DNA from: Eledone cirrhosa
Lineage: Eukaryota
Assembly (NCBI GenBank): GCA_964016885.1
Contig: OZ024742.1
Location: forward strand, 287,494,001-287,558,000
DNA length: 64,000 nucleotides
Direction of reading: 5' to 3'
In this document: in pieces, positions 5,845 through 60,540 of the stretch
Numbering within the stretch: position 1 is the stretch's first letter
How the letters are laid out: each line of letters opens with the position of its first letter
Notes under the pieces: model-generated
What the model saw: the letters and a program-made list of their open reading frames with translations, nothing else
Told to the model about the DNA's origin: nothing
The model's database searches: none
Translations under genes and position numbers: made by a program

Positions 5845-7680
5845 ACATGATGGCTGCAAACTCGTGTTCGAGCATTGCCATCGTCTGATAAAATGCTAAA
5901 AAGTGTGAAGCACGAATGAGGCTCTTTAAACCAGCCAAAGACATGCACTCTCTGGCACACATATGGCAACTGTAGGCTCCTCTGGGACATTCCACTGCTT
6001 GCTTCTGTGTGTTTTCATATGTCTTTTAAGACCTCCCATGCTTGCACATTCCTTACCACATTCCTTACACCTTTTTAGATCATAATCTACATGAGGTCTA
6101 CTGATATGACTTTGTTCATGTCTAATCATACCAGATTTGCTCAGGCACACTCGACCATAGTGCTGGCAAACCAGACATTGCTCAACAGCAGGCAGTTCAA
6201 AACAGTCTCTTTTCCCCATCTTCCTTTTCAGTGTTAGGTGTTCTCTTCGACGAGTTTCAAAGTGTTCACTTCCTGACTTAATCAAACGTCTCCACTTCAC
6301 ACGCTCCTCAGCCATTTTATCCCATTCGTCAGATGAAATTCCAGCGCAAGTCCCGGTAACGCATTTTTTATTTGTGTGCCGGTCGCCTTTCTTCGCATAG
6401 TTCACCGTAGAGAAGTTAATTTGGAATACGATCATCAGACATCCAGACCACGTGACCGCACCACCTCAACCGGTGCCTAAAGATCATGCTCTCTATGCTC
6501 ATGCACCTGCTCCGTTCGAGAACTTCCAAATAACTGACGAACAATTTCTATCGCACCTAAAGTATCTTATGAAGAGATTGTTGGTGAAACCGTTCCAGTT
6601 CCTTGAGGTGCTTTCTGTATGTGACCCACGTTTCACAACTTTGGAGGGCAACCAAGCTTTTCCAAAATTTGCCACATCGCAGTTCGATTGACGGTGTGAA
6701 AGGCCTTTGTCAAGTCAACAAAAACATGGTAAAGGTTCATACATTGTTCGATACACTTTTCTTGCAGCTGCCGAGCAGAAAAGATCATATCCACTGTTCC
6801 TCTTTCGTTTCTGAATCCACAATCTATCCATCAAAATTCGACACATGACTTTACCAACTACTGAAAGAAGTGATATGCCACGATAATTGCCACATTTGTC
6901 TTTCCCACCTCTTTCTTTATGGAGAATCACCATGAGCGCATCCTTCCAATCTTGTGGGACACTCTCATCTTCCCACACCTTTTTCATAAGGTCAGTCAGG
7001 CGCTGCGTGAATTTTTCAACACCGCACTTCAAAACCTCTGCACTCAGACCATCCACAATTCAACTTATGCACAGCAGAATTCACCTCTGCAAGAGAAGGT
7101 ACATTAGCCATCTCATGCTTCACTGGTTCAATAGGAATGGAGCAAATGAAATCATCATCAATCTGGGATGGCTGGTACAAGAGCTCATCGAAGTGATCTC
7201 TCCATCTGTCGAGTATGTCTTTTTGGATCGCGCAGTGACTGCTTGCTATCTTTCGATCTCAAAGGTGTCACTGGTGAGCTGAAAGGGCCATACACTTCTC
7301 TGAGTAGAGTGTGCAGCAGTTTCACATTTTTGCCATTAGATGCTGCTTGAACTTCATCTGCTTTGTTGCCTCACCAGTAATTTTGCATGGTCCTGGGTTT
7401 CACCTGCACCTTCTTTACCTGTCTCCTTTACCTGACAAAATTGTCAACAACAGAACTTAAAGAACTGCATCGAGTGCCTTTTGTTTTCTGTCCAGCAGAG
7501 CCTTGACCTCCTGGTCATTCTCATCAAACCAGTCCTTGAATTTTCTTGTGACAAAGTCAAGGACCTCTGCTGAAACATCATAGACCGAGCTCCTGAAGTC
7601 ATTCAAGTTGTTCGCACAATCAATGCTTTCAAGCCTGCGACGCACCTCTTCCTTGACACCTTTATCTTTTGGTACCACGA
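5845..7680 (-). mobile_element. Decayed, internally deleted RTE-clade LINE (partial ORF with RT N-terminus and three C2H2 fingers)
   Basis: KDWFDEND, DGLSAEVLK, VPQDWKDA...CGNYRGISLLSVVGKV and C-terminal CxxC-x12-H fingers are visible. It has a 3' hairpin and a microsatellite tail, plus stops and frameshifts. No YADD segment is seen. Confidence 0.9.
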
Positions 7681-7681
7681 G

Positions 7682-10668
7682 CCTTTTTGCTGAGAACGCG
7701 AACCACTATGTGCATCCATGTTCGTTTGTGAATGAAGTCAGGAAACGCCAGAGAGGTTCTCTGAGGGCGGCAGTCGACCTCAGCGTAAAGCTCCCAAACC
7801 GCCACTTGTTCATCAAGGACCTCCTGTCTGGAAGAGGCTTCCTCGTGGATACAGGAGCCTCCGTTAGTATTTGGCCGGTCCTTTGCCCTAAGGATACCCC
7901 GTGGAGTCATCCGTTACTTTGCAGGCTGTTAACCACTCGCCTATAAAGACGTACGGACAAATCTCGCTTCCTCTCAAATTCCAAAATCTTCGTAGGGATT
8001 TTAAATGGATTTTTACGGTCGCTGACTTGCCATACCCAATCTTAGCAGCGGATTTCCTTCACAATTTCTCCTTGACTGTGGATGTCCGAGGCCAACGTCT
8101 GGTGGATGACATCACCGGTTTCTCAATTCGTGGCCGAAAAGCCAATGCTCCAACGATCAGCCCAATATTCTTCATCGCTGCCGCTGGAGACGCCTACCAT
8201 TCGTTGTTAGGATCCTTCCCGGAGCTCACCGATGGAAATTTTCGAGTTACTGAGCCAACTCACTCAACCGAACATTTTATTTCCACAACCGGTGCTCCAG
8301 TATTTTCACGTCCACGTCGTTTACCGGCGGACAAGTTAAAGGCAACACGGTCTGAGTTCGACCATATGTTGCAGCTGGGCATTATTCGCCCATCTACGAG
8401 TCCTTGGGCGTTACATATGGTGCCCAAGACTTCTGGCGACTGGAGACCCACTGGGGATTATAGGAGGTTAAACGCGATGACCGTCCCGGATAGATATCCG
8501 ATTCCCTATCCCCAGGATTTCGCATCTTCGTTGCAGGGTTGTAAGATTTTCTCCAAACTCGATTTAGTGCGAGCTTACCACCAAATTCCGGCGAGGAAGG
8601 AAGACATTCCGAAAACAGCTATTGCGACTCCTTTCGGATCCTTCAAGTTTTTGACCATGCCTTTCGGACTCAGCAATGCCGCTAGCACTTTTCAGCGGTT
8701 CATAGACGAGGTCACTCGTGGTCTGGACTTCGTTTATGCATATATAGATGATCTTCTCGTCGCTAGTTCCTCTCCAGAAGAGCATATGCGTCACCTGAAC
8801 CTTTTATTTCGTCGACTCCAGGATTACCGCGTTCGAGTGAATCCCGAAAAGTGTGTTTTCGGATCCGCTTCACTGAATTTTTTAGGTCACATCATCGAAG
8901 CTGAGGGTATTCAACCCCTTCCGTAGCGAGTTAAGGCTATACAGGATTTACCTCCGCCTACTACACTTCACCAGTTGCGTCACTTCCTAGACCTAATTAA
9001 TTTTTATAGACGTTTCGTTCCTCAATGTGCAAAATTACTGTTTTCCCTTACCGAGATTTTGAAAAATCGTCGTAAGAAGAATGAGGATATTTCCTTGACA
9101 CAAGGACAATTCGAAGATTTCCAGACTGCCAAGACAGCACTTGCTAATTCATCTTTGCTAGCCCACCCAGTACCAGAGGCCAAGATTTCGTTTTGTGTCG
9201 ATGCATCTGATACCGCTGTGGCAGCATTTTTACAACAGTATAACGCTAAAAACCAACAACCTTTGGCATTTTTCTCCAGGAAGCTGAAACCAGCTGAAAT
9301 CAGCAGAAACTCGTTACAGCACGTTGGTCGGGAGTTATTAGCCATATATCTGTCGTTGAAATATTTTTCTCATATTCTTGAGGGAAGAAATTTTACGGTT
9401 TTCACTGACCACAAACCTCTGACCTTCACTTTGAGGGATACAGCCGATAAATATTCGCCCAGAGGGACAAGGCACCTTGGTTTCATTTTGCAATTTACAA
9501 ATGATATACAGCACATTGCTGGCTCACTAAATACAGCTGCAGACGCCTTATCACGCTTGCCAAGCAGCTCGATTTCGTCATCCCAGGAGATAGATTTAAG
9601 TCGTTTGGCAGCAGACCAACCTGCACTCGAATCGTTGCGAATTTGCGACTTGCAACCTGAAATATCTGCCCTTGTCGACTACCGACAGGCAGATCCTCTG
9701 CGACGTATCTACGGATTCACCACGACCTTATGTTCCGAGACTCACCGCCGAATTGTGTTCCTTGCTTTGCACAGCATTTCTCACCCAGGATCTTCAGCCA
9801 CAGTAAAGCTCATAACGGCTAGATTTTTCTGGCTAATTATGAGCGAGAAATTACTGCCTGGTGCCGTTCTTGCATACAGTGTCAAAAATCTAAAGTCCAC
9901 AGACACATCCGGACTCCACTTGGTACTTTCAGTACTCCGGATGCTCGTTTTCAACACCGATATCGTTGGACCTTGGCCATTCAGTAGTTGATATTCTTAC
10001 CTTTTGACCTGCATTAGGACATTACCGCCGAGACGATAGCGCGTGCCCTGGTATCAGGGTGGATTGCCCGCTATGGAGTGCCAACCACAATTACCACAGA
10101 CCGTGGTAGGCAATTTGAATCTCATCTTTTCTCAGAGCTGACAAAATTTATTGCCGCTCAACGCATTCGGACCACAGCTTATCATCCTGCTTCGAACGGA
10201 ATGGTGGAACGTTTTCACCGCCAATTAAAGACCGCTCTTCGCGCCTATCCAGACTCTCTACGTTGGAGCGAGTACCTTCCTATTGTGTTATTAGGAATTC
10301 GGTCATCAATAAAGGAGGACCTTGGGTTCTCCCCGGCCGAATTATTGTATGGTGCTCCTCTAGCGTTGCCTGGGCAAATGCTTGCCCCTGTTGATCTTGC
10401 TTTTCAAGATCCTCTTTCCTACGTATCTCGTTTGCGTTCCTATTTTCAGGACTTACCGCCTATGGATACTAGGAAACAAACTATTAAAACTGCAGTCCCG
10501 AGGGATATTGCCTCGTGGACACACGTCTTTGTCAGAAACGACGCGGTTAGTCCACCCCTCACACAACTCTGGACACACCGTGTGTTAACACGTACTGACA
10601 AACATTTTACAGTAGACATTAGGGGATCCAGAGAGACAATTTCGGTGGATAGACTAAAAAGGGCATAC
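7682..10668 (+). mobile_element. Ty3/Gypsy LTR retrotransposon internal region (gag end-PR-RT-RH-IN), pseudogenised, no LTRs visible
   Basis: FLVDTGASVS protease, [37 protein letters not shown] RNase H and [28 protein letters not shown] integrase motifs, in Gypsy order with stops and frameshifts. Confidence 0.95.
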
Positions 10669-10738
10669 ACTTCCGCACGCACACATAGATACCTACATTC
10701 ATACATACATACACATACATACATACACACACACACAT

Positions 10739-10863
<125 letters not shown>

Positions 10864-19830: not shown

Positions 19831-20648
19831 ACTATTTAGTTAAGTATATGTTTTAAAATACTTTAAATGATTCTTCAAATTATTATTACGCTAAGTGCTA
19901 ATGCTTATTTTTGAACTCTTTAATTATTAATTTGCTCCAGAGTAGAAAATGTATATATTTTAAATCAATTATCTCAAATAGAATGGTAAATTGAGAATGG
20001 TTAGGAACAGATTTATAACGCAGTGAAAAAAGATAATGTTACATAATGTTTTGATCAAGTTTTGCTGTTTCACGAATCTATTTCAATATTAGAATCACAA
20101 GTGTTCATGTGTATCCTTATACAGGTATTTCTCCAAAGATGATTTCTATGAAGTTTTGTTCAGAGTAAAGAAATGTTAATATCTCCAGAAAGTCCTGACG
20201 GAAGTGTGACGTAATGTTATCTGGTAAATAGTTTTTTGGGGAACTCGTTATTTTTTTCACACCATCGATATGTTTTGTCTAGAGAAATATTGCACTTGAA
20301 AGCGATCGTAAAATTGAACGACCGATATTTATATATTGTTACCAATAAAAGATAATATTTATAATGCAAAAGCCCCTATAGTACTTTAATATCATAGCTT
20401 TGCTCGTTTTATAGCTGTTATTTCACTTATGGCAGTAGACAGCGAAGCCACAAAAGAAGTAAAACGTGTTAATTCGATAAACTTTTGAGCCATGCAAACT
20501 ATACTACTTCAGGCATGAGTATTTTCATGAGACATTTTTATTATCCAGAGACGTATTTTCTATTCCTACCAAAAATCAACAAATAAATCTGTCATCTCGA
20601 CTCTATAAATGAATGCATTGCCCTCCTTTCCTCGTGCCAACAACTACA

Positions 20649-21660
20649 TACAAGGGTCGGCTGAAAGGTTCATAGGCTGACGAAAATACTCTCATGGAAT
20701 GGGACCAAATGTGGTTTATTTTTCCAACATAGTGCCCCTTGTGCTTCACACACATCTTCCATCGGTGTTTCAGTGATTGGATCCGATTGATGAAGAAGCT
20801 TTCATTTTGTTGGTAAAAAACGTCATCAATAGCAGACATGACGTCATCATCACTACGATACTGGTTCTGAGCCAAGAGGTTTTTCGTGTTGGGGAAAAGA
20901 GGATAGTCAAATGGGGCCAAAACAGGAGAATGGGGAGGGTGATCAACCAGTTCAAAACGACAGTCACGCACAGCAGCCATTGAAGCAAAGAACTTGTGTG
21001 CAGGAGGATTGTCCTGATGAAACAAGTCCCCATTCGTCAGTTTTCCTGGGCATTTGGTCTTGATAGCCTTTCTTAACTGCCTTGGGAAGTTGACATAGTA
21101 CTCTCCATTGATGGTATGGCCCTTTAGAAGATAGTCAATAAACAATGCATTCTGCATCACCCAAAACTGAGGCCATCAGCTTCGCTGCAGATGAAATAAC
21201 CTTGGCCTTCTTTGGAGCAGGCGAGGAGGGTTTTTCCACCGTATGGATTGTTTCTTTGTCTTTAGCTCAAAGTGACGAACCTAACACTCTCCCGGGTGAG
21301 GAAGCGTTCAATGAGACCAGCTGGATCTGCCTCAAACAATGTCAGATTTTCCCGTGATGTGATCAGCCTGGCGTGCTTTTGATTAGGTGTCAGAAAATAT
21401 GGCACCCACCGAACAGAAACTTTCGTCATGCAAAGTTCATTGAGCATAATCTCAACTCTCTCATGTGATATTCTATTTGATTGATAGTCAATTGCTTGTC
21501 ATCCATCACCATGTGGTGAACACGATCAATATTTTTTTTCGGTGGTAGCAGTTGCAGAACGTCCAAATCTTTGGTCATCTTAAAGATTGTCCTTTCCCTT
21601 CATAAATTCAGCTCCCCACTTTTGCAATGTTGACAATGCAATGGAAATTGATCGATACAA
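20649..21660 (-). mobile_element. Mariner (Tc1/mariner) transposase pseudogene
   Basis: KVSVRWVP..LT, IDYL.KGHTINGEYY, FHQDNPPAH and HPPHSPVLAPFDYPLF motifs. TA + CAAGGGTCGGCTGAAAGGTTCATAGGC at 20649 looks like a TIR. Confidence 0.9.
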
Positions 21661-25780: not shown

Positions 25781-25822
25781 TCAAAGTTCTTTCGTCACAC
25801 ATTTCTGTGACATCTTCAGTGA
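25781..25822 (-). ncRNA. Type I hammerhead ribozyme (minimal)
   Basis: TCA-CTGAAGA-t-GTCACA-gaaatg-TGTGAC-GAAAG-aa-CTT-TGA. Core boxes are intact, stem II has 6 bp, and the cleavage triplet is CUU. Confidence 0.6.
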
Positions 25823-31710: not shown

Positions 31711-31776
<66 letters not shown>

Positions 31777-31780
<4 letters not shown>

Positions 31781-32196
31781 TATGTACACGTACATACATA
31801 TATGTATACCGACGTACAGTAGTATGTATATATATATATACATACATGCACACATATATATATGCACGTATGGATTCACCGAAAAGGTATACGTTGCTGA
31901 CGATAGCTAACAAGCTTGAAACTAGTACAGCGTTCCTTTGTCAGTGTTGAACAAACGAGCAACGGTGGTTGCTAGACACTACGGTTTAATACGGGATGTT
32001 TGTTTACAAACACACCGAGCATTATAATAAATGTTCGGTGAATCCATACGTGCATATATATATGTGTGCATGTATGTATATATATATATACATACTACTG
32101 TACGTCGGTATACATATATGTATGTACGTGTACATACTTATATTTAAGTAACAGCCGTACTAAGAGTGGGAAATGAAATATCGTTTCATTTTTTCC

Positions 32197-32200
<4 letters not shown>
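31777..32200 (+). mobile_element. Non-autonomous PLE-type element with inverted 5' repeat, in (TA)n
   Basis: 31777-31882 is the reverse complement of 32034-32140. It contains an HHR and belongs to the same family as 43054-43898. Confidence 0.85.
31891..31933 (+). ncRNA. Type I hammerhead ribozyme (minimal, palindromic stem III)
   Basis: ACGTTG-CTGACGA-t-AGCT-aaca-AGCT-t-GAAAC-TA-GTA-CAGCGT. Confidence 0.85.
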
Positions 32201-32268
<68 letters not shown>

Positions 32269-32304
32269 ATATATATATATGTATATATATATAACTGTTT
32301 CTAC

Positions 32305-36303: not shown

Positions 36304-39300
36304 ATTTCTTTATTAGCCAAAAGGGCACAAAAGAAGGGGACAAATACAAATGAGGAGTTTACATACAGGTATATGAAAATAAAACTATTAATAAAATAAC
36401 AAATAACAATTGAAATCCCCAATAGGGGGGGGGGCGTTACACAGAGGTTGTACACACCCCGAAAAAATGTACAACCCTGAACTCCAGGAGCACCAAGAGT
36501 GAGTACTCCCCTCCTCTCTTCCTCTTTTTCCTCAACCTGCAGGCTTATATAGAGAGAAGGTCCAACCACTCGGGCCATCTTTGCCACATTCACCCACCTT
36601 TTATAAAATTTGCTGGGGTACAGCACCTCTCTCTCCATCCTCATTCTTCTTCCAAAATGATATTTGAAAAAACGAATCAGTTGCTCGCCGGGGAGTAAGG
36701 TGTCTGACCTCAGCCCTGTTAACCTCGTCCACTATATAACCTCTTTCACCATAGCCATAACACATAGGAAAACCGCCTCTCACTCGTTTTTGAAGGAGGG
36801 TGGCGGTTTGATCATGGCAATGGATTCGGTGGTCAACTGGATTGGTCCCAGCCGCGACAATAGTCGTTCTACATAGATGCAAAGGTCGGTAACGCCCGGG
36901 CAGTGTACAAATGCGTGCGCGACGGTTTCCTCATCGCGCACGCATCTCGGACAGATCTTTTTCGAAGGGTCCCTGCCCGGGCGACGTGTCTGTAGAGCTT
37001 GATTCGAACTGGTAGAGCTCCTCGGTAGCACTGCCAGGCCAGGGACTTTTGGAAGTTGTCCATTGGTCCCGGGCGGAAGGTCCTACCGAACAGACTGGCT
37101 AGTTCGTCCTCCTCTACGCCTAGAGTTTCTCCAAGTACGTCGTCGCACTTGCTGCGGACCAACCCTCTATAGAATGTCGAAGTGGAGTCTCCACTGATCG
37201 CCGGGTCTGTTTGCCAGAGGACTGTGAGCGCCTGAGCACGTTCGATGTGCCAGTCGCCCATTGCCAGTCGCCCATTTTCCTCGGTCTTTGCTTGACCCAG
37301 GACTGCAGCTCGGTCAGCGAGATGAGTCGTGGGAAGGCTCGCCTCACGAACGGGGCCCACACCGGTTGTCCGGTGAGGAATCCGTGGAGGTGCCGCAGTC
37401 TGAGCGCGTGTTTGCGCATCGTCAGCGACGGCATCCCCAGCCCTCCGTTTGAAGGGTGTTGGCAGCAGATGGATCTTCTCACCAAAGGAGCCCGTTTCTT
37501 CTAAAGGAATTGGAAGAGCGCGCGTTCCATTTTGGAGAGCATTTTGGCTGGACAAGGCACGACGGTCAAGCGGTAGTAGATGACGGACGCTAAAAAAGTG
37601 TTCGCCATCTCCGCTCGACCTTTCAAGGATAGTTTGCAGTCGGCCCACTTCTGGGTGAGTGCAAACACCTTGGCCGTCACCTCGTTCTAGTTCTTCTCCA
37701 CCTGGAGGTCTGGACCAAACCAGACCCCGAGCAGCTTTACCGGTCCTTCCGTCCAGCGTCCGACGACGCCATCGGTTTGCCTCCACGTTCCGAGTTGCAA
37801 ACCGACGGATTTGTCCCGGTTCAGCTTCGCTCCTGTGAACCTTTTGTATTCCTCCAGTAAGGTGCCGATCTCCCCGATTTGCGAGGTGCTCGACACCATT
37901 ACTGTTACGTCGTCGGCGTAGGCCGACGCCGCTTTTCGAAGTCCCGGTTCCAGAGGGATGCCCTGTAATAGCTCCAACTTCAGCAGTAGTGGCTCGAGAG
38001 TCAGTACGTACAGAAGGGAGGAGAGAGAGCATCCCCGTCGGATGGGTCGCGTGATATGGAACGGATCCGAGAGGTAGCCGTTGACCTTGACCCTTGAGCA
38101 GATATTGCTGCTGTGTATTGCAGCAATCGAGCCCCTCAACACGGGTCTGAAGCCTGCCGCCTCGAGCACCGCATCCAGGTAACGATGGTCAACCCTATCG
38201 AAAGCCTTAGACTGATCCAAGTTGATCAGCGCCCCACCGAAGTTGATCAGGGCCCCATCCTACCCTCTCTATGATGTATTGCATGAGGTGGAGGTTGTCG
38301 TGTATGGACCTGGTTGGGATTGCGCATGTCTGCGCTTCTCCCACCAGGTTTTCGACGACAAGCGCCAGCCTCTTTGCCAACACCTTGGCCAAAATCTGTA
38401 ACTCTGTGTTTAGCAGGGTTATGGGCCGGAAGTTGCTTATGTCATCACCCTTATTCTCGCCCTTCCTGACTAACGTGACTACGCCCTTGGTCACAGAACT
38501 GGGAATTCTCCCGTTCTGATGCCAGTTGCAGTAGACCGCTTCCAGGAGACCGAAGAACAAGTCTGACATTGTTACGTAAAATTCGTAGGGTAGATCGTCG
38601 AGACCTGGAGATTTGCGTTTGCCGTATTGGCTCAGCGCGTCCCCTATCTCAGCGGCCGAAATCGGCCTTTCGCAGAACTTCGCCTCGCTGTCCGAGAGTC
38701 GCGGTAGGCCGTCGAGGTATGGACCGAAATCCAAAGCCTCTCCCGGCGCGCCGCCCTGCCCGAACAGTTGAGGAAAGTGCCGCTGAAAGGCCGCGCACAT
38801 CTGCTTCGGCTCACGTATCACGCGTCCGTTTTGGTCCTTCAAAGACTGAATCGTGGACTTGTTGCCACTTTTCGCCTCCGTCACTCGGGCCCAGTTAACA
38901 ACTTTGGCTTCCTCGTTTCCCAGAGCACGTATTTTGCTTCTGACAACGCAGCATTCATTCTTTGCGTCGAAGAACTGGTCCAAGGCCGTTCTCGTCGCTA
39001 ACACTGGCTACGTTGCCACTCGTAAGTGCCTCTTCTACTTTATCTACCAGTTCCTTTTCGGTTTTAGTTCTATCTAACACTAATTCTTTACTAAAACCTA
39101 TCGAGTCTAATCTAACTGCACTCTTGAGAGAGTACCACCAACTGTTGTTGACAATGGCCCCCTCAAGTGCTGCTTAACTAAAGTGCTAATCCGTCTACTG
39201 TAAGCTTTGTATGTCGGTAACGACAAGTTCAGCGTCCAGTAGCCGAGTCCCTGTCTATGGGTTTTGTCAAGGTTGACTAAGCAGGTCACTAATTTGTGAT

Positions 39301-42967: not shown

Positions 42968-43055
<88 letters not shown>

Positions 43056-43252
43056 GTACATACATATATGTATACAGACGTACAGTAGTATGTATATACA
43101 TACATACATGCACACATATACATACATATATGTACGTATGGGTTTACCGAATATTTATTATAATGCCCGGTTTGTTTGTAAACAAACAGCGCGAATTAAG
43201 CCGTACAGTGTTCAGCAACCATCGTTGCCCTTTTGTTCAACACTGACAAAGA

Positions 43253-43295
43253 ACGATGAACTAGTTTCTAGCTTATTAGCTGTCATCAGCACCGT
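43253..43295 (-). ncRNA. Type I hammerhead ribozyme
   Basis: ACGGTG-CTGATGA-c-AGCT-aata-AGCT-a-GAAAC-TA-GTT-CATCGT. Confidence 0.85.
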
Positions 43296-43583
43296 ATACC
43301 TTCCTGTCAATCGATTGAACGTTTGAAAGTATATACTTTCCTTATGCATATTAACGGCTGAGCAGCCTAATTTGCATATCGAGTGAGTTAGTCGGCCGGG
43401 CGTACCGAAAACGATAAATGGAAAAAAGGAAATTTAATTTCTCACTCTTAGTACGGCTGTTACTTAAATATAAGTATGTATACGTACATATATATATGTA
43501 TACAGACGTACAATAGTATGTATATACATACATACATGCACACATATACATACATATACGTTCAATCGATTGACAGGAAGGAT

Positions 43584-43626
43584 ACGGTGCTGATGACAGC
43601 TAATAAGCTAGAAAATAGTTCATCGT
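43584..43626 (+). ncRNA. Type I hammerhead, stem III point mutant
   Basis: Same as 43253-43295 but with GAAAATAGTT. Confidence 0.7.
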
Positions 43627-44145
43627 TCCTTTGTCAGTGTTGAACAAAAGGCCAACGATGGTTGCCGAACACTGTATGGCTAATAATTCGGGCTGTTTGT
43701 TTACAAACAAACCGAACATTATAATAAATGTTCGGTAAACTCATACGTACATATATGTATCTATATGTGTGTATGTATGTATGTATGTATATACATACTA
43801 CTGTACGTCTGTATACATATATGTATGTACGTATACATACTTTTATTTAAGTATCAGCCGTACTAAGAGTGAGAAATGAAATTTCATTTTTTCCATTTAT
43901 ATATATATATATATACATATATATATTATAAAGAATCGGGAACCGACGGCTGAGCTCTTGCCGTTTCAACAGCTAGTTCCAGCCGTTGTAACAGGAAGAG
44001 ATCAGTCGTCGGGTCGCGACTCGTTATATTTAACCCCAATTTACAACCCCAAGAATCGAGTACTCTGTTGATTAATGGTCTTACCATCCTCCGGTTGCAA
44101 CGTTTTTCGAAATATTTACTTCTGCGTTCACAGATTGGTTTTTTT

Positions 44146-46207: not shown

Positions 46208-46290
46208 CGTTATTCCGGGTTGAATCGGAGGTAACCACAGTAAGTAAGGTACTCAATACATAGCAGAGTATAACAGTTTTAATATAGATG

Positions 46291-46341
46291 AGATTCTACA
46301 GGACTAGAACTGTTTCATTCATTAGAAATCATCAGGAATCT
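46291..46341 (-). ncRNA. Type I hammerhead ribozyme at a PLE relic terminus
   Basis: AGATTC-CTGATGA-tTTCtaatGAAt-GAAAC-AG-ttctagtc-CT-GTA-GAATCT. Confidence 0.7.
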
Positions 46342-46869
46342 GGGTATCAAAAAATAAATATGGTATTTATAGGTCTCTACAAGTGGTAGGAGAGGGTGGG
46401 GAGTGGGATGGGTGCAGGTCATTGGTTGATAGAGAAGGGAATTCATTAAAAGCTAATTCTACATAGCTATAGTTAATTTATATTTATTTATGTTTTTAGA
46501 GTAACAAAGGCAGACAGAATTCTATAAACAGGTTCCGGATGGCATACCATTCCTTGTCAATAAGTTTCTCTTAAGCTAGCAGATGTCTATAAAATCAGTG
46601 GGGGGTCATTCATGCTCGATAGAATTAAAGAAAAGGGAGATTCTTTAAAAGCTAAAGTCATTAAGGTTCTACTAAGTGACAAAGGTCTAGGGAATTCTGC
46701 AGACAGATTCAAAATACTGAGTGCATATCTTACTATTATCTTCGAACTTCTCTTAAACTAATCAACAATATGCCAAATCAACAGACACATTCACAAAAAA
46801 CCAAAAAAACCCAAAAAAACAAAAAAACAGAAAAACAAAAAAAACCGCACCTAAAAAACAAAAAAACAC

Positions 46870-47063
46870 ACATACTCACTCACACACTTACGCGCAACCA
46901 TAAACACACACATAAACACATATACACACATAAAAACACACACACATATATAAAAAATATATAAATATATACAAATATATATTCATGTACACACACATAC
47001 ATACACACGTACATACATACATACATATATAAAAAATACATATACACATATACATACGCACAC

Positions 47064-47140
<77 letters not shown>

Positions 47141-47201
47141 TATACACATATATATATACACACATACACACACACACACATACATACATATATATATATA
47201 C

Positions 47202-47236
<35 letters not shown>

Positions 47237-47437
47237 CATACATATATATACAAATATATATATATATATATATACATACACATATACATACATATATATA
47301 TATACACACACACACAGATACACACACACATACACATACATACACACATACACACATATATACACAAATAAATACACTCACACGCATACATACAAACACG
47401 AGTATACATATGTATAAATATCTATACACACACACAT

Positions 47438-47482
<45 letters not shown>

Positions 47483-47517
47483 CATATACACACATACATA
47501 CACACATATATATACAC

Positions 47518-47568
<51 letters not shown>

Positions 47569-47661
47569 TACATACACACACACACATATATATACATATA
47601 TATATATCTCTATATACACACATACAAATACATATATATATATATATATACATATATATAC

Positions 47662-47699
<38 letters not shown>

Positions 47700-47855
47700 C
47701 CATACATACACAAACATACACATGCATACACAGACCTATACATAAATATACACATATATATACAGAGATATAACGCACATATACACACACATATATACAT
47801 ACACACATATATATATATATATATAAAAATATATATATATATATACACACGCATG

Positions 47856-47928
<73 letters not shown>

Positions 47929-47996
47929 GCGCGCATACACACATACACACACCCACACACAAAATATATATACACACACACATTCTCTCTCTCATG

Positions 47997-48039
<43 letters not shown>

Positions 48040-48079
48040 ATATACACAGACACATACAAATACATACATACATACACAT

Positions 48080-48128
<49 letters not shown>

Positions 48129-48341
48129 TATACATATATATATACACACACATGCATATACATATACACATACATATACACACACATACATACACACACA
48201 CACACACATATATGTACAAATACACTCACAAATACACACACATACACACATATATACATATACATACACACAAACACATACATATACACATATATATATA
48301 TAAATACACGCACACATATACACACATACGCACACGCACAC

Positions 48342-48388
<47 letters not shown>

Positions 48389-48474
48389 AATATATACACA
48401 CACATATATACAAACATACATATACATACATATATATATATATACATATATATATACATATACATATACATACA

Positions 48475-48524
<50 letters not shown>

Positions 48525-48664
48525 TATACATATATATACATATACACACATACATACATACATACATACATATACACAAACACATACAAACATATACCTA
48601 CATAAATATACACACATAAAACACGTATTCACACAAACATATATATATACACATATATATATAT

Positions 48665-48743
<79 letters not shown>

Positions 48744-48880
48744 TATATACACACACATATATATATACATATACATATATATATATATATACACACATAC
48801 ACATATATATATATATATATACACACAACTCATACACAAATACACATATACAAACAAATATATACACATACAAGTAAATA
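46870..48880. repeat. 2-kb compound (TA)n/(CA)n microsatellite
   Basis: Direct reading. It is the source of many spurious ORFs. Confidence 0.97.
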
Positions 48881-49050
48881 GGTACTCAATAAATATACGC
48901 ATATACACAGGCACATAAAGACACCTCTACAGGCAGAAAAAGTAGATACAAAAGAGGTACTCACATGACCATAGTGGCCGTATTTCAGGTTGAGGAGGGG
49001 TGGGGGTAGGGTGGGGAGGAGGTATAGGGGCCAATAGGGGGAGGTCGTTT

Positions 49051-51132
49051 TTAGCCATCGGGCTTTAACACTGGCTTAAAGTGTTTGAATGTTGCAAAGT
49101 TCTTGTGCATGCAGTTCGGGCAGTGTTCAGAGAGTTTGTTCAGTAGCGGGCCCTTGGCGAATAAAATTTCGTAGCTCTCTGAAATACAAAGGTCGCAGCC
49201 CTTGTGTCCTCCGTCGTAAGAGCGCGCTTTCTGGAGTATTTTCCAATTAAGCGTGAAGGGGGTGGAGTTCCTTTTGAGGTCCCAAACGTAGGAGGCGAGT
49301 GTTGTTTGGTTTGATTTATCCGGAGTTCTGAAGGAGTGGGTATGGGCATACCAGCGGGTCTTAAAGGTGTTGGAGGTCATGCCGATGTAAGTTTTTTTGC
49401 AATCCTCGGTGCCCGAGATGACATCGCATTTGTATACGATGTCGTTTGTGAGGCATTTGTTTTCTAGTGGGCATGTTTCCTTATTTAGGCAATTACATAG
49501 AGCCCCAGTCCGGGGATTGGTTTCGGAGGTGGTTGGCTTATTTAGTTTAGAGTTGTGGTTGGCTATATTCCTAGCTAGGTTAGGTGTGGTGGAGTAAGAC
49601 AGTCTTATAGTGTTCTTATTAAAGATGGTGTAGTACCTATGTTGTATGGGGAAGTGTAATTTCAGTAAAGTGAAGAAAATCCTAGCTATCGGAGTAGATA
49701 CCTCTCTATTGAAGGGAGGGTTGTACCAGCTAATCTGCCTATGTCTATTCCTCCTCTGCAATTTTGCGGTGGTTTCTAGGTAAGTTATCTTATCTTTAAA
49801 TCCGCTACGGGCTAGGGCGTCATTGTAGTAGGTGGCAGATGCATTAAAAATATCTTTGTTGGCGGAGAGGCCAGATATTCTAATAGAGACGCTTTTTACT
49901 AGGTTATCAGTAATGTTTTGGGGGTGGTTTGAATTAACATTAATATATTTAAGGGACTCGTTAGGTTTGTGGTACGGGTAATAGAGGGAAGTATCTAGGT
50001 CGAGAGTGACGTCTAAGAAGTTGGCCCTAGTCAAATTAGAATCTATAGTTATACTAAATCCTAGATTAGAGAAGAAAGAGCTTAAGTTTTTCCGAAACCC
50101 ATCGGTGGTTCTGGGGCTAACCTTATGCAGGGCGAAGAGGCCGTCGTCTCGGTATAAACCTCCAGTAAGGCCGGTAAAGAGGTTCTTCAGGTTATGTAGG
50201 ATGTACAGGCCCACAAGGTCGCTAATTTCAGCCGAGTCACTCGCCCCCATGCTAACGTCAAATGGGGTCTGAGATTTCTTGTTCATCCAGTAAGATCCAT
50301 CGTGGTATAGAAAGGTCTTACGAGCGTGGAGGATAATAACTTGCTCGGCATCGGTAATGGTGGTAAAATTCCTGGCAAAGTTAATTGCGTCCTTCAGGAG
50401 GGGCTCCGAGATAGAGGCATAGTAGTTTTCTATGTCGAGTTGCAGGAAGCGAGTGTGGTGTTTATCGGGTAATTCTTGGAACCATGATATTGCCTCAGAT
50501 GTTCTACTCCAGAGTGGAAGTGGTGAGGTCGCCCGCAATAATGGTAGAACTCTATCCAGGATCTTCTTACTGATAGAGCCGATGTCAGAACGAGTGGGGT
50601 TGATAAGTCTGACTGATGGTTTGTTGAGGAAGTTTCCCTTATGGTCCTTCAGGGTAAAGTGCGGGGTCTTTACCCTTAAAGGTTCGGTTCGGTCATGTAA
50701 TTTAAGGGACTTGGCGATTTCTTTTCCGGCCGCGTTTGTCTCAGTCAGCGCCCTCTCTATTACCTTTTTGTAGGTGGTCGTGATGGTATTTTTTGCCAGC
50801 TTATTGTAGGTCTGTGGGTCTACCTCATAAACGTTTTTGGTTTTATCGGAGGAGACATAAAGATTAGGGGATTTTTTTATATTCCGTAATTCGGCATTTA
50901 AGTAGGCCTGGAATGGTGTGGTGGCTCTACGGAATTTAATATCCTTGATCATCTTGAAGAGGTCTTCCTCAAATGGTTGGAGTAGGCTGTTGGTGGGTGG
51001 TGTCTTATTTGTTTTGAAGCCGAACTTCTCATCATTGGTAGATGCTACATCAGGGTTGTCGAGGAAGAAGGCCCTCCATCTAATTCGCTTGATGAACTCG
51101 TCGGTACGTCTGATGAGTGTTTTTAAGTATAG
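49051..51132 (-). CDS. Penelope-like element ORF: RT + Cys linker + GIY-YIG endonuclease (probably Hydra clade), 5'-truncated
   Basis: SDKT, DIENYY, FDVSMGASDSAEISDLVG, GLYRDDGL, FLDV, CNCx5C and IVY..TYIG.T..FKTRW..H motifs. The frame stays open about 60 codons upstream of the ATG at 50952 (LYLKTLIRRTDEFIKRIRWRAFF). Confidence 0.95.
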   Translation of the reverse strand, partial: LYLKTLIRRTDEFIKRIRWRAFFLDNPDVASTNDEKFGFKTNKTPPTNSLLQPFEEDLFKMIKDIKFRRATTPFQAYLNAELRNIKKSPNLYVSSDKTKNVYEVDPQTYNKLAKNTITTTYKKVIERALTETNAAGKEIAKSLKLHDRTEPLRVKTPHFTLKDHKGNFLNKPSVRLINPTRSDIGSISKKILDRVLPLLRATSPLPLWSRTSEAISWFQELPDKHHTRFLQLDIENYYASISEPLLKDAINFARNFTTITDAEQVIILHARKTFLYHDGSYWMNKKSQTPFDVSMGASDSAEISDLVGLYILHNLKNLFTGLTGGLYRDDGLFALHKVSPRTTDGFRKNLSSFFSNLGFSITIDSNLTRANFLDVTLDLDTSLYYPYHKPNESLKYINVNSNHPQNITDNLVKSVSIRISGLSANKDIFNASATYYNDALARSGFKDKITYLETTAKLQRRNRHRQISWYNPPFNREVSTPIARIFFTLLKLHFPIQHRYYTIFNKNTIRLSYSTTPNLARNIANHNSKLNKPTTSETNPRTGALCNCLNKETCPLENKCLTNDIVYKCDVISGTEDCKKTYIGMTSNTFKTRWYAHTHSFRTPDKSNQTTLASYVWDLKRNSTPFTLNWKILQKARSYDGGHKGCDLCISESYEILFAKGPLLNKLSEHCPNCMHKNFATFKHFKPVLKPDG

Positions 51133-51550
51133 TTAGATGCGGAAGTAAAAGAGGTAAGGGAGTGTAATAATTAAAGGAAAGTATCAATCTCGATATATTT
51201 ATAAAAATGTAACAATAAATTAGAAAGAAAAATATATTAAAGAAAAGAAGACAAAAAAAGGGGGTACATACATACACAGACACGCATATCTCACAAAAGA
51301 AACGCAAAAATATACATGCTTATATACACATCCATACGTTCAGTACATACATACACACACACACACACACACATACTTACACTCACGCATATTGACCTGT
51401 TTGCATGCACACGCATAAAAATGAGTAAGTAAAAAGGGGGGGGGGGGAGAAGAAAAAAGGAACAAAACATAAAACCTAGATGTCAAAACACGGATATAAA
51501 GACACATACACATACGCATAATATATACATACACACACACACACATATAT

Positions 51551-51595
<45 letters not shown>

Positions 51596-52011
51596 CACGC
51601 ACGCGCGCGCACATACGTAGTCGCTCATGTATATATATAGAAAGTATACACACATTAAGGCGTTCAGCCATATTGATACAGGGTGTAAAAAACTTGTGGA
51701 TAAGTAAGTACAAATATAAAATTGTAAGATTGGCTGCGCAAAAATAAAAAAATAAAAATAAAAATGAAAAATATATCTGAATTGGAAAACACAAATGACA
51801 AGTGTGATCAGTTAGTGAAGGAAAAAAGGAAGTAAAAAAAGGGGAAGTAAAAAATGGAAAGTGAATCGGAGAATAAAGGGGGGGGGGGTTATTGGTGGAT
51901 GTGAAGTAAAAATAAAAAAAAAAATAAGAATAAAAATAAATGAAATTATTGACAAGGATAAAAATGAAAGTAAGTCAGAAAGGGTAATTAAAAAGAGAGA
52001 ATAATAAGAGT

Positions 52012-52425
52012 TTATGGAGGATAAGTATCTGAAAGTGTGTTAAGTTTATATGAGCTGGAAAGCAGGTGTGATTTCATGTGTGGGCAACTGGTGAAAATTT
52101 CCGTCTTTGTGTTCAGGCAGGTCTTTGGTGATTTTAGATTTTGCAATATCCAATATTTTTCATTTATGCAGAGCGTGCATTTTCTTGTTCCTCTAGCATA
52201 TTTTTTAGATTGGTTCAAAATTGACCAATCTAATTTATATTGGATGCCTTGGTCTTTCAAATCCCAAATTCTGCTAGCCAGAGCTGTTGTAAATCTTTTT
52301 TCTGGATGTCGAAAAGATGCGACATGTGAGTAATAACGCGTTTTGAATTTGTCTTGCGTCATACCCACATATCGTTCACTGGTGGCTGGATGGTTGTTGC
52401 TGATGGTTGTCACTTTAGCCGCATA
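52012..52425 (-). pseudogene. GIY-YIG endonuclease C-terminal fragment of PLE family B
   Basis: IYAAKV...YVGMTQDKFKTRYYSH..SFR....T.LAS.IWDLK..CTLCINEK..LN...CPH, homologous to but diverged from the 49051 ORF. Confidence 0.9.
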
Positions 52426-52532
52426 TATCCACAAGTTTTTTACACCCTGTATCAATATGGCTGAACGCCTTAATGTGTGTATACTTTCTATATATATACA
52501 TGAGCGACTACGTATGTGCGCGCGCGTGCGTG

Positions 52533-52603
<71 letters not shown>

Positions 52604-53353
52604 ATATATGTGTGTGTGTGTGTATGTATATATTATGCGTATGTGTATGTGTCTTTATATCCGTGTTTTGACATCTAGGTTTTATGTTTTGTTACTTTTT
52701 TCTTCCCCCCCCTTTTTACTTACTCATTTTTATGCGTGTGCATGCAAACAGGTCAATATGCGTGAGTGTAAGTATGTGTGTGTGTGTATGTGTGTATGTA
52801 TGTACTGAACGTATGGATGTGTAAGTGTGCATGTGTATATAAGGATGTATATTTTTTCGTTTCTTTTGTGAGATATGCGTGTCTGTGTATGTATGTACCC
52901 CCATTTTTGTCTTCTTTTCTTTAATATATTTTTCTTTCTAATTTATTGTTACATTTTTATAAATATATCGAGATTGATACTTTCCTTTAATTATTACACT
53001 CCCTTACCTCTTTTACTTCCGCATCTAAGCGTACGTGTATGTAGGTGTGTTTATGCGCGCGCCTTCATATTCATATTCTTATGATGTATCTATTCTGTCT
53101 GTAGATTACAGACATACAGATACATTTGCCCTAAATTTTATATTTACGCACACTTTTTCACTATACGTATACACATGTGCATACACATATATGCACATCT
53201 GTGAGCGTATATACATACATATACACACACCTAACTATATTTCTTGATAGATTTTTATATATTTCAATTTCTAATTCATTTGTCTATATCCTTTTTTTTT
53301 TTTTTTTTTTGATTTTCTTGATGAGACTTTCCAAGTATTTACCCATGTTTTAT

Positions 53354-57908: not shown

Positions 57909-60540
57909 GGTAGATAGTGTAGAAGAGGCAATTAGAAGTGGCAACGTAGCCAGCGTGCTAGCAACGAGAACGGCCATGGACCAGTTCTTCGACGCAAAGC
58001 ACGAGGGCTGCATTGTCAGAAGCAAAATACGTGCTCTGGGAAACGAGGGAGCCAAAGTTGTTAGCTGGGCCTGAGTGACGGAGGCAAAAAGTGGCAACAA
58101 GTCCACGATTCAGTCTTTAAAGGACCAAAACGGACGCGTGATACGTGAGCCGAAGCAGGTGTGTGCGGACTTTCAGCGGCACTTTGCTCAACTGTTCGGG
58201 AAGAGCGGCGCGCCGGGAGGGGCTATGGATTTCGGTCCATACCTCGACGGCCTACCGCGACTCTCGGACAGCGAGACAAAGTTCTGCGAAAAGCCGATTT
58301 CAGCCGCTGAGATAGGGGACGCGCTGAGCCAATGCGGCAAACGCAAATCTCCAGGTCTCGACGGTCTACCCTACGAATTTTACGTAGCAATGCCGGACTT
58401 ATTCTCCGGTCTCCTGGAAGCGGTCTACTGCAACTGGCAACAGAATGGGAGAATTCCCAGTTCTGTAACCGGGGGCGTGGTCACACTAGTCAGGAAGGAC
58501 GAGAATAAGGGGGATGACATAGGCAACTTCCGGCCCATAACTCTGCTAAACACAGAGTTACAGATTTTGGCCAAGGTGTTGGCAAAGAGGCTGGCGCTTG
58601 TCGTGGGTAACCTGGTGGGAGATGCGCAGATGTGCTATCCCGTCCAGGTCCATCCACGACAACCTCCACCTCATGCGATACATCATAGAGAGGGTTGGGA
58701 ACGAACCCGGCTTTGGTGGGGCCCTGATCAACTTGGATCAATCTAAGGCATTCGATAGGGTCGACCATGGTTACCTGGATGCGGTGCTAGCGGCGGCAGG
58801 CTTCGAACCCGTTTTCAGGGGCTGGATCAATGCCATGCACAGCAGCCGCATCTGCTCTCGGAGCCGTTCGAAATCGCGCGGTCCATCCGACAGGGGTGCC
58901 CTCTCTCCTCCCTTCTGTATGTAATGACTCTAGAGCCACTGCTGCGGAAGTTGGAGTTGTTGCAGGGCACCCCTTTGGAACTGGGATTGCGGAAAGCGGT
59001 GTCAGCCTACGCCGATGACGTAACAGTAATGGTGTCGACGGCCTCGGAAATCGGGGCGATCGGCACCTTACTGGAGGAGTACGAAAGGTTTACAGGAACT
59101 AAGCTGAACCGGGACAAGTCGATCGGTCTGCAACTCGGCACGTGGAGGGGCAGATCGATGCCTTCAGATGGCGTCGTCGGATGCTGGACGGAAGGACCGG
59201 TAAAGCTGCTCGGGGTCTGGTTTGGTCCGGACCTCCAGGTGGAGAAGAACTGGAACGAAGTGACGGCCAAGGTGTTTGCACTCACCCAGAAGTGGGCCGA
59301 GTGCAAACTATCCTTGAAAGGTCGAGCGGAGGTGGCGAACACTTTTATAGCGTCCGCCATCTACTACCGCTTGACCGTCGTGCCTTGTCCAGCCAAAACG
59401 CTCTCCAAAATGGAGCGCGCGCTCTTCCAATTCCTTTGGAAGAGGCGGGCTCCTTTGGTGAGAAGATCCATCTGCTGCCAACACCCTTCTAACGGAGGGC
59501 TGGGGATGCTGTGGTTGACGATGCGCAAACACGCGCTCAGGCTGCGGCATCTCTACGTATTCCTCACCGGACAACCGGTGTGGGCCCCGTTCATGAGGCG
59601 AGCCTTCCCACGACTTGTCTCGCTGACCGAGCTGCAGTCCTGGGTCAAGCAAAGACCGAGGAAAATGGGCGACTGACACATCGAATGTGCTCAGGCGCTC
59701 ACAGCCCTCTGGCAGGCGGACCCGGCGATCAGCGGAGACTCAACTTCGTCATTCTATAGAGTGTTGATCCGCAGCAAGTGCGACGACGCGCTCGGTGAAT
59801 CTCTAGGCGTAGACGAAGATGAACTGGCCTGTCTGTTCGGTAGGACCTTCCGCCCGGGACCGATGGACAACTTCCAAAAGATCTGTCCGAGGTGCGTGCG
59901 TAACGAAGAAACCGTCGCGCACGCATTAATACACTGCCCGGGCGTCACTGACCTGTGGGGCTATGTAGAACGACTATTGTCGCGGGTGGGACCAATCCGG
60001 TTGACCACCGAGTCCATTGTCATGATCAAACCGCCACCCTCCTTCAAAAACGAAGGAGAGGCGGTTTTCCTTTGTGTGATAGCTATGGCGAAAGAGGTTG
60101 TATGGTGGACAAGGTTGAAAGGGCTGAGGTCAGACACCTTTCTCTCCGGCCAACAACTGATTCTTTTTTTCAAATACCACTTTTGAAGAAGAATCAGGAT
60201 GGAGAGAGAGGTGCTGTACCCCAGCAAGTTTTATGAAAGGTGGGTGAAAGTGGCGAGAATGGCCCGAGTGAATGGGCCTTCTCTCTATATCAGCCTGTAG
60301 GCTGAGGAAAAAGAGGAGGAGAGGAAAGGAGTACAAACTCTTCGTACTCCTGGAGATGAGGGTTGCACATTTTTTTTCGGGGGTATGTGTTACTCATATG
60401 AACTGTCTCCTCCTATTAGGGAAAATCGACTAATTTTTAAATTACATTTGTGATAATAATTTACACGTTTTTATTGTATGTAAACTTCCCCCTTTGTATT
60501 TGTCCCCTTCTTTTGTGCCCCTGTGGCTAATAAAGAAACA
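57909..60540 (+). mobile_element. 5'-truncated copy of the Tx1-like element
   Basis: Highly similar to 36304-39050 in reverse (KSPGLDGLPYEFY, YADD). Flanked by (TATC)n and ends AATAAAGAAA. Confidence 0.93.

Follow-up and report, generated by a model that had tools for sequence, protein, structure and literature searches.

The stretch of Eledone cirrhosa DNA that was analysed (64,000 nt, hereafter the window; positions 287,494,001 to 287,558,000 of contig OZ024742.1, assembly GCA_964016885.1) carries two head-to-head arms at 31777–32202, flanked by (TA)n tracts, with a single hammerhead motif in the right arm (Table 1). The left arm is an exact inverted copy (107 nt, or 110 nt when three TA bases are counted) of a segment of the right arm, i.e., the inverted copy that the initial annotation had placed 5′ of the element is real, at 107 rather than 106 bp. 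When the insertion was inspected for a target site duplication, both outer ends were found to run into (TA)n, and the (TA)n flanks reported earlier were recovered. The right arm is 98.7% identical to a unit of a head-to-tail array with a period of 422 bp (locus L009), and many of the best genomic matches to the window copy (98–100% identical) are such arrays. The element is consequently not the ca. 320-bp entity initially proposed: the repeating unit measures 422 bp, and unit positions 276–378 (103 nt) are missing from the window copy. Read from this layout, the window locus is a non-LTR retrozyme copy: a tandem hammerhead repeat with a unit of 422 bp has been inserted there as two arms, truncated at the 5′ end. 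Since it holds a single ribozyme (with no head-to-tail ribozyme pair) and lacks these 103 nt, it is predicted to be an ordinary dead-end copy.

Table 1. Features of the retrozyme insertion, its ribozyme and related elements in the window (positions are those of the window; a dot denotes no strand).
Feature	Position	Strand
Left target flank, (TA)n tract	31717..31778	.
Left arm, inverted and 5′-truncated, approximately unit positions 107–213, stops at the fixed short end	31777..31883	-	
Right arm, 319 nt, spanning unit positions 379 to 275 via the ribozyme, stops at the fixed long end	31884..32202	+	
Type I hammerhead, whole motif	31884..31938	+	
Distal helix	31884-87/31935-38	+	
Helix I	31891-31896/31928-31933	+	
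Core, CUGACGA and GAAA	31897-31903 and 31918-31921	+	
Helix II with basal U.U and 6-nt loop 2	31904-31917	+	
Helix III, ACTAGT palindrome	31921-31926	+	
Predicted cut, after GUA	after A31927		
Segment in common with the left arm: hairpins and internal purine-pyrimidine tract	32034..32140	+	
'Tail' between the two fixed ends, 54–62 nt (borders blurred by TA microhomology), with a predicted hairpin ahead of the long end	32141..32202	+	
Right target flank, (TA)n tract	32200..32293	.	
Separate subfamily B insertion, 521-nt arm with one ribozyme, short end	43037..43557	-	
Other arm of this subfamily B insertion, 343 nt, long end; its ribozyme is decayed and lacks C15.2	43558..43900	+	
Hydra-type Penelope-like element, 5′-truncated and ending in (TA)n, with an open frame of 693 aa and a hammerhead-like core at 46335	46208..51132	-	

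Elsewhere in the window lie a Gypsy-type LTR retrotransposon whose RT, RNase H and integrase frames are interrupted by stops (7892–10740, + strand), two RT-bearing LINE-like copies in inverted orientation that are 88–95% complementary (36462–39004 and 57955–60375), a partial mariner-type transposase (20603–21175, − strand) and a C2H2 zinc-finger frame that is part of a multi-copy stretch (5926–6465, − strand).

The hammerhead with its ACTAGT palindrome was correctly recognised in the initial annotation (31891–31933) but is not the textbook minimal form that was claimed. Its layout is that of a canonical-type type I hammerhead (a helix I of 6 bp accompanied by a distal helix, and a loop 2 of 6 nt), with 14 nt between the core halves. 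Canonical type I motifs have been described with a 6-bp helix I, a 4-bp helix II and a short palindromic helix III, whereas the minimal form of Penelope-like elements (PLEs) has a short helix I, a helix II of 7–8 bp, an extra base after A9 and a G10.1–C11.1 pair (Cervera and de la Pena 2014, PMC4209133). The motif found here and those minimal PLE hammerheads are both type I, with palindromic positions 15.2–16.2 and predicted activity as dimers; unlike the latter, the present motif has canonical helix sizes and a U.U. More specifically, helix II of the window copy comprises just three standard pairs, with U.U replacing G10.1–C11.1, and across loci this position was U.U in 82, C.A in 29, G–C in 19 and C–G in one, U.U being the state of subfamily A, C.A that of B and G–C that of C. 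Nothing in the window matched Rfam at gathering level, and the window copy was unmatched by the Rfam hammerhead models at E ≤ 10; the subfamily C homologue matched HH9 (E 1e-8, 37.7 bits), under the gathering score of 52.

As read from the sequence, helix III would form one pair at most in a monomer, closing a palindromic tetraloop. Axolotl retrozymes offer a precedent for both peculiarities, i.e., a weak palindromic, 1-bp helix III as in HHR_Amex1 and a basal helix II U.U as in HHR_Amex2, and good cleavage was described for them only as dimers (PMC7229834). On this precedent, and given the palindromic helix III, dimer dependence is predicted here too, so that an inactive monomer would not speak against the ribozyme. 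Of 55 loci retrieved with a motif that lies outside the ribozyme, only 9 contain a ribozyme pair in head-to-tail order. Counting against the predicted cleavage, 8 of 9 Xenopus dimers are reported to have failed to cleave in vitro (bioRxiv 10.64898/2026.07.22.740005). An intron around the ribozyme was considered and rejected: the GT donor-like site is confined to subfamily A, the acceptor-like bases are paired in the distal helix, and no GT..AG joint was listed in the contigs considered. Contigs of four runs did not distinguish an RNA from a DNA origin.

The ribozyme core plus palindrome pattern has 40,322 exact matches in the 3.0-Gb genome (vs. 2 for the reversed control), and a motif outside the ribozyme has 22,940 (vs. 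16 for its control). Next to the 422-bp unit, related subfamilies show periods of ca. 429 bp (B, to which the 43-kb copies belong), 466–469 bp (C and D) and 484–502 bp (E), and one array reaches ca. 30 units. The unit RNA is predicted to be strongly self-paired (fold z of –7.7 as a linear molecule), the circular unit folding at –146.9 vs. –100.5 ± 4.8 and, when the internal tract is left out, at –104.3 vs. –74.9 ± 5.0. No frame of at least 150 aa lies across 31777–32202, and the 182-aa frame that runs across the 43-kb copy is unmatched in Pfam. The unit contains neither LTR-type nor coding content and, since no RT or GIY-YIG frame is present in it, it is not an autonomous PLE, in support of the non-autonomous hammerhead element initially proposed. 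By every sequence feature tested, the element belongs to a known class, the metazoan non-LTR retrozymes.

The way in which copies end was analysed in 141 non-redundant loci, most of which had been chosen by ribozyme-containing queries and 55 of which had been picked by a motif outside the ribozyme. These contained 78 head-to-head two-armed insertions, and in 52 of them both ends lay at one of two fixed sites, termed short and long: 50 combined a short with a long end, two had two long ends, and none had two short ends. The remaining ones had one fixed and one other end (16), neither end fixed (7) or ran past the fetched edge (3). After one duplicate was dropped, the short-plus-long combination was present in 49 of 51 readable insertions (p-value of 6e-13), and the 23 of 78 insertions with at least one end at neither fixed site count against the rule. 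According to anchors, the short and long ends are 57–74 nt apart, and each usually leads into (TA)n: among the 55 loci obtained with the non-ribozyme motif, this tract followed 30 of 34 long ends and 25 of 33 short ends, compared with 3 of 23 ends located elsewhere. Multimers in both arms are frequent, the 5′ breakpoints of the two being unrelated. A hairpin ahead of the long end was predicted in all subfamilies sampled and beat shuffled sequences only in C and D2 (1/200 and 4/200 shuffles, respectively), that of the window copy not being significant (49/200).

Penelope elements have been described with an inverted 5′-truncated arm and with a tail at one of their ends (PMC8557442; PMC3846280). 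For the anole Penelope, the tail is bordered by two RT start sites within the element, and both strands are cut and extended (PMC11167929). The coding Penelope elements of the Eledone genome end in the same manner: short and long ends were paired in 8 of 9 two-armed Hydra-type insertions and in 4 of 4 distinct readable Neptune-type insertions (of eight Neptune-type rows in total, four representing one insertion and one being cut off), as well as in locus L116. This pairing of a short with a long end represents the 'tail' footprint of Penelope elements, common to the retrozyme and to the coding Hydra and Neptune elements of the genome. We therefore consider Penelope mobilisation of the retrozyme highly probable and, only slightly less firmly, take the window locus to be a 5′-truncated two-armed retrozyme copy that a Penelope-like RT and endonuclease likely put into (TA)n. 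At several loci (L080, L116, L122, L323 and L327), Penelope-type families and the retrozyme were often seen to abut in one (TA)n tract, the new end serving as the next target.

A candidate for the helper class is exemplified by the Hydra-type element at 46208–51132. Its 693-aa frame contains RWR, DKT, CxCX5C and GIY-YIG motifs, which agree with the Hydra motif list in section 11 of PMC8557442, and has no Pfam match. The family is young, with 150 scored relatives being 95–100% identical and several carrying 758-aa frames, and a 1.7-kb purine-pyrimidine tract in the 3′ region travels with the element. Neptune-type families are also present, solo ends bearing this footprint occur frequently for both Hydra and Neptune elements, and the genome's own Penelope tails measure ca. 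60–70 nt. Neither retrozyme tails nor units aligned with the ends of the sampled Penelope families better than shuffles did (best 5/200 among 25 tail tests; 14–98 of 200 and 90–247 of 300 shuffles in the other comparisons); likewise, in the families sampled (GIY-YIG loci and the Hydra family), no pLTR similarity to an autonomous partner exceeded shuffles. The footprint thus points to Penelope-like elements as the candidate helper class, a particular helper not being identified by sequence.

Further Penelope-like material was noted alongside. The window contains a two-armed piece of a second Penelope-like family (51450–52700), with a GIY-YIG-like frame at 52012–52632, and a hammerhead-like core at 25819 (− strand) that also occurs at other loci and is probably the end of another Penelope family. 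Two Neptune-type families (L091–L130 and L182–L201) carry hammerhead-like motifs with a U3–A8 core and a palindromic ACCGGT helix III, one of them with the basal U.U and 14-nt spacing seen in the retrozyme.

From covariation with the 43-kb copies, the initial annotation had argued for selection on ribozyme function. Across six subfamily units, core columns were invariant in 11 of 11 cases vs. 111 of 267 other columns (p-value of 9e-5), although this is circular for subfamilies C, D and E, which were first found with the core pattern. A C/D tail motif has 10,061 matches, and the places listed for it coincide by eye nearly all with the 9,621 core matches, indicating that the C/D family keeps the core. 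Among 13 recurrent variants, 93% of cells pair, as opposed to 28–49% when the partners are slid. Double changes occur in 7 of 16 pairs (helices I and II), with a covariation score exceeding all 500 shuffles; the rows are related, and the number of double-change pairs as such (7) is not above the shuffled 6.1 (188/500). A single deep split accounts for most of these double changes, and one more belongs to C/D. The data support selection for the ribozyme fold in the mobile lineage, presumably during replication.

The differences in stem I, N7 and H17 from the 43-kb copies are as claimed, but the stem I change amounts to one U.G/G.U wobble swap. Among the fetched loci picked outside the ribozyme, this pair was U.G in 26, A–U in 10, G.U in 5, U.U in 4 and something else in 2; since it also occurs as U.U, a mismatch is tolerated and the pair argues only weakly for selection. 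Conservation of the core in the 43-kb copies was likewise partly borne out, as the 43.6-kb copy has kept the 11 core bases while C15.2 and the palindrome are gone from it. Of the 77 units in the sample obtained with the non-ribozyme motif, 66 retain every core base, and in that sample recurrent variants affected 0 of 11 core vs. 63 of 287 other columns, which is not significant (p-value of 0.13). Rare core substitutions were fewer than elsewhere in 55 loci (0.015 vs. 0.031; p-value of 0.046), a deficit that was gone in 112 loci (0.018 vs. 0.021; p-value of 0.64). Inserted copies hence lose the core at about the background rate and decay near-neutrally, and there is no sign of selection at the window locus. 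Scars of RNA editing were also looked for in subfamilies A and B and are unsupported, as A>G changes did not differ significantly from T>C changes in 55 loci (31/3196 vs. 18/3170; p-value of 0.086) or in 112 loci (42 vs. 41; p-value of 0.91), and a G>A excess seen at first was gone on retest.

A cycle can be proposed in which tandem arrays would be transcribed, and in which neighbouring ribozymes would pair via the ACUAGU palindrome and release 422-nt units, to be ligated into circles. A Penelope protein would then cut both (TA)n strands and start cDNA synthesis at two internal sites ca. 60 nt apart, both cDNAs extending past the ribozyme to their respective stopping points and then becoming joined in head-to-head orientation. 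Cut linear units were rejected as the usual template, as the 5′ ends are evenly spread over the unit and show no pile-up at the cut site (9 of 174 near it vs. 5.9 expected), and as arms cross cut sites: 147 of 174 cross at least one (a number inflated by most loci having been chosen with ribozyme-containing queries) and 35 of 174 at least two. At polymorphic sites, the arms of one insertion match each other in 91.6% of cases, compared with 72.2% for different loci; locus-private alleles were found in both arms in only 5 of 139 cases, and arm agreement does not establish a single template molecule. Separately, L221 (G000:C1:19313900-19317800) was seen to contain four units in which two variants alternate (15 substitutions at lag 1, 2 at lag 2), which fits a dimeric template.

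The most serious competitor, to which we attach a smaller but substantial probability, is Penelope insertion from an uncut read-through transcript of an array, in which case no circle would be copied and the ribozyme would persist as a passenger or owing to a role in another step. Arms that cross the cut site fit such a transcript equally well, the alternation in L221 is expected from a mixed source array as much as from a dimer circle, and for the anole element uncut RNA was the dominant substrate (PMC11167929). That ribozyme mutants had no effect on in vitro insertion by an anole Penelope counts against the proposed cycle. On the other hand, the 6 + 5 units of L252 show zero substitutions within either arm, one array extends to ca. 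30 units, and the invariance of the core over ca. 40% divergence argues that cutting matters. A circular rather than an uncut multimeric template is on balance mildly favoured, and the full proposal, in which a Penelope enzyme, starting at two fixed sites, worked from either side of a single DNA break to copy a small RNA circle produced by the ribozyme, stands in our estimation at about even chances.

It is unlikely that the copies are broken-off pseudo-LTR ends of autonomous Penelope elements, arrayed later by unequal crossing over. The solo Hydra and Neptune ends bearing this footprint would suit such an origin, and local tandem amplification is favoured in bioRxiv 10.64898/2026.07.22.740005; however, the sequence upstream of the ribozyme in arrays is the next unit, the frame listings of 90 loci and the surroundings of 40 GIY-YIG loci show no reading frame joined to the unit, and the multimeric arms with their unrelated 5′ breakpoints are difficult to reconcile with it. 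A fold-back or MITE-like DNA element, or a palindrome born from a microsatellite, with a hammerhead by chance, is very improbable: inverted arms, TA flanks and an internal purine-pyrimidine tract do recall such elements, but the arms vary in length, the outer fixed ends are unequal and do not constitute terminal inverted repeats, and chance is contradicted by the 40,322 vs. 2 pattern matches and by the collapse of pairing when partners are slid. Less plausible still is a host-domesticated ribozyme under selection at the window locus. The window core is intact, and the halved rate of rare core substitutions in one sample would be compatible with domestication; yet that deficit vanished in the larger sample, and with 100% identity to other copies over 167 nt the copy is too young to show selection. 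Insertion of a retrozyme by a Penelope-like machinery remains the reading preferred here.

Like the metazoan non-LTR retrozymes (Cervera and de la Pena 2020, PMC7229834; review PMC7761336), the present elements are tandem non-coding units (of 150–450 bp in those accounts, the largest subfamily period here passing 450 bp); each unit holds a single type I hammerhead of canonical type (6-bp helix I, 4-bp helix II, loop–loop motif and short palindromic helix III), and its RNA is highly self-paired. Circular RNA and cleavage have been demonstrated for the former, whereas here they are predictions from the sequence. Conversely, two-armed insertions in (TA)n with one short and one long fixed end are what is found here, and the word 'inverted' is absent from the main text of PMC7229834. 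That paper and the review name Penelope elements as candidate mobilisers of retrozymes, and Li, Clavereau and Pollet (bioRxiv 10.64898/2026.07.22.740005) proposed retrozymes of similar unit sizes to be non-autonomous Penelope derivatives, calling the mechanism open. The evidence in that preprint consists of co-occurrence and pLTR similarity in vertebrates, with 'tail' absent from the sections considered, whereas the evidence here is the insertion footprint, pLTR similarity not being found. With EN+ Penelope-like elements of the Hydra and Neptune clades (Craig et al. 2021, PMC8557442; PMC3846280; PMC11167929), the retrozyme has in common the inverted 5′-truncated arm, a tail at one end, (TA)n targeting and a hammerhead near the ends; unlike them, it has no reading frame and is repeated as a whole unit, and its tail of 57–74 nt exceeds the 30–40 bp in print for Penelope, which counts against the assignment. 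A short-plus-long footprint for retrozymes was not found in print (supplements, which lay outside the literature search, may list related elements), and the word 'ribozyme' is absent from the sections considered of a 2026 octopus repeat annotation (PMC13282606).

In the literature considered, the return of animal retrozymes into DNA has been proposed, not demonstrated. The rule of one short and one long end, common to the retrozyme and to coding Penelope elements of the same genome, constitutes direct structural evidence for the Penelope link, and the footprint supplies exact candidate start sites. Together with the young and intact Hydra family, these mapped sites make the presumed retrozyme cycle directly reconstitutable. 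If the proposed cycle is true, a non-coding circular RNA parasite would have placed more than 40,000 ribozymes in the genome of a single animal.
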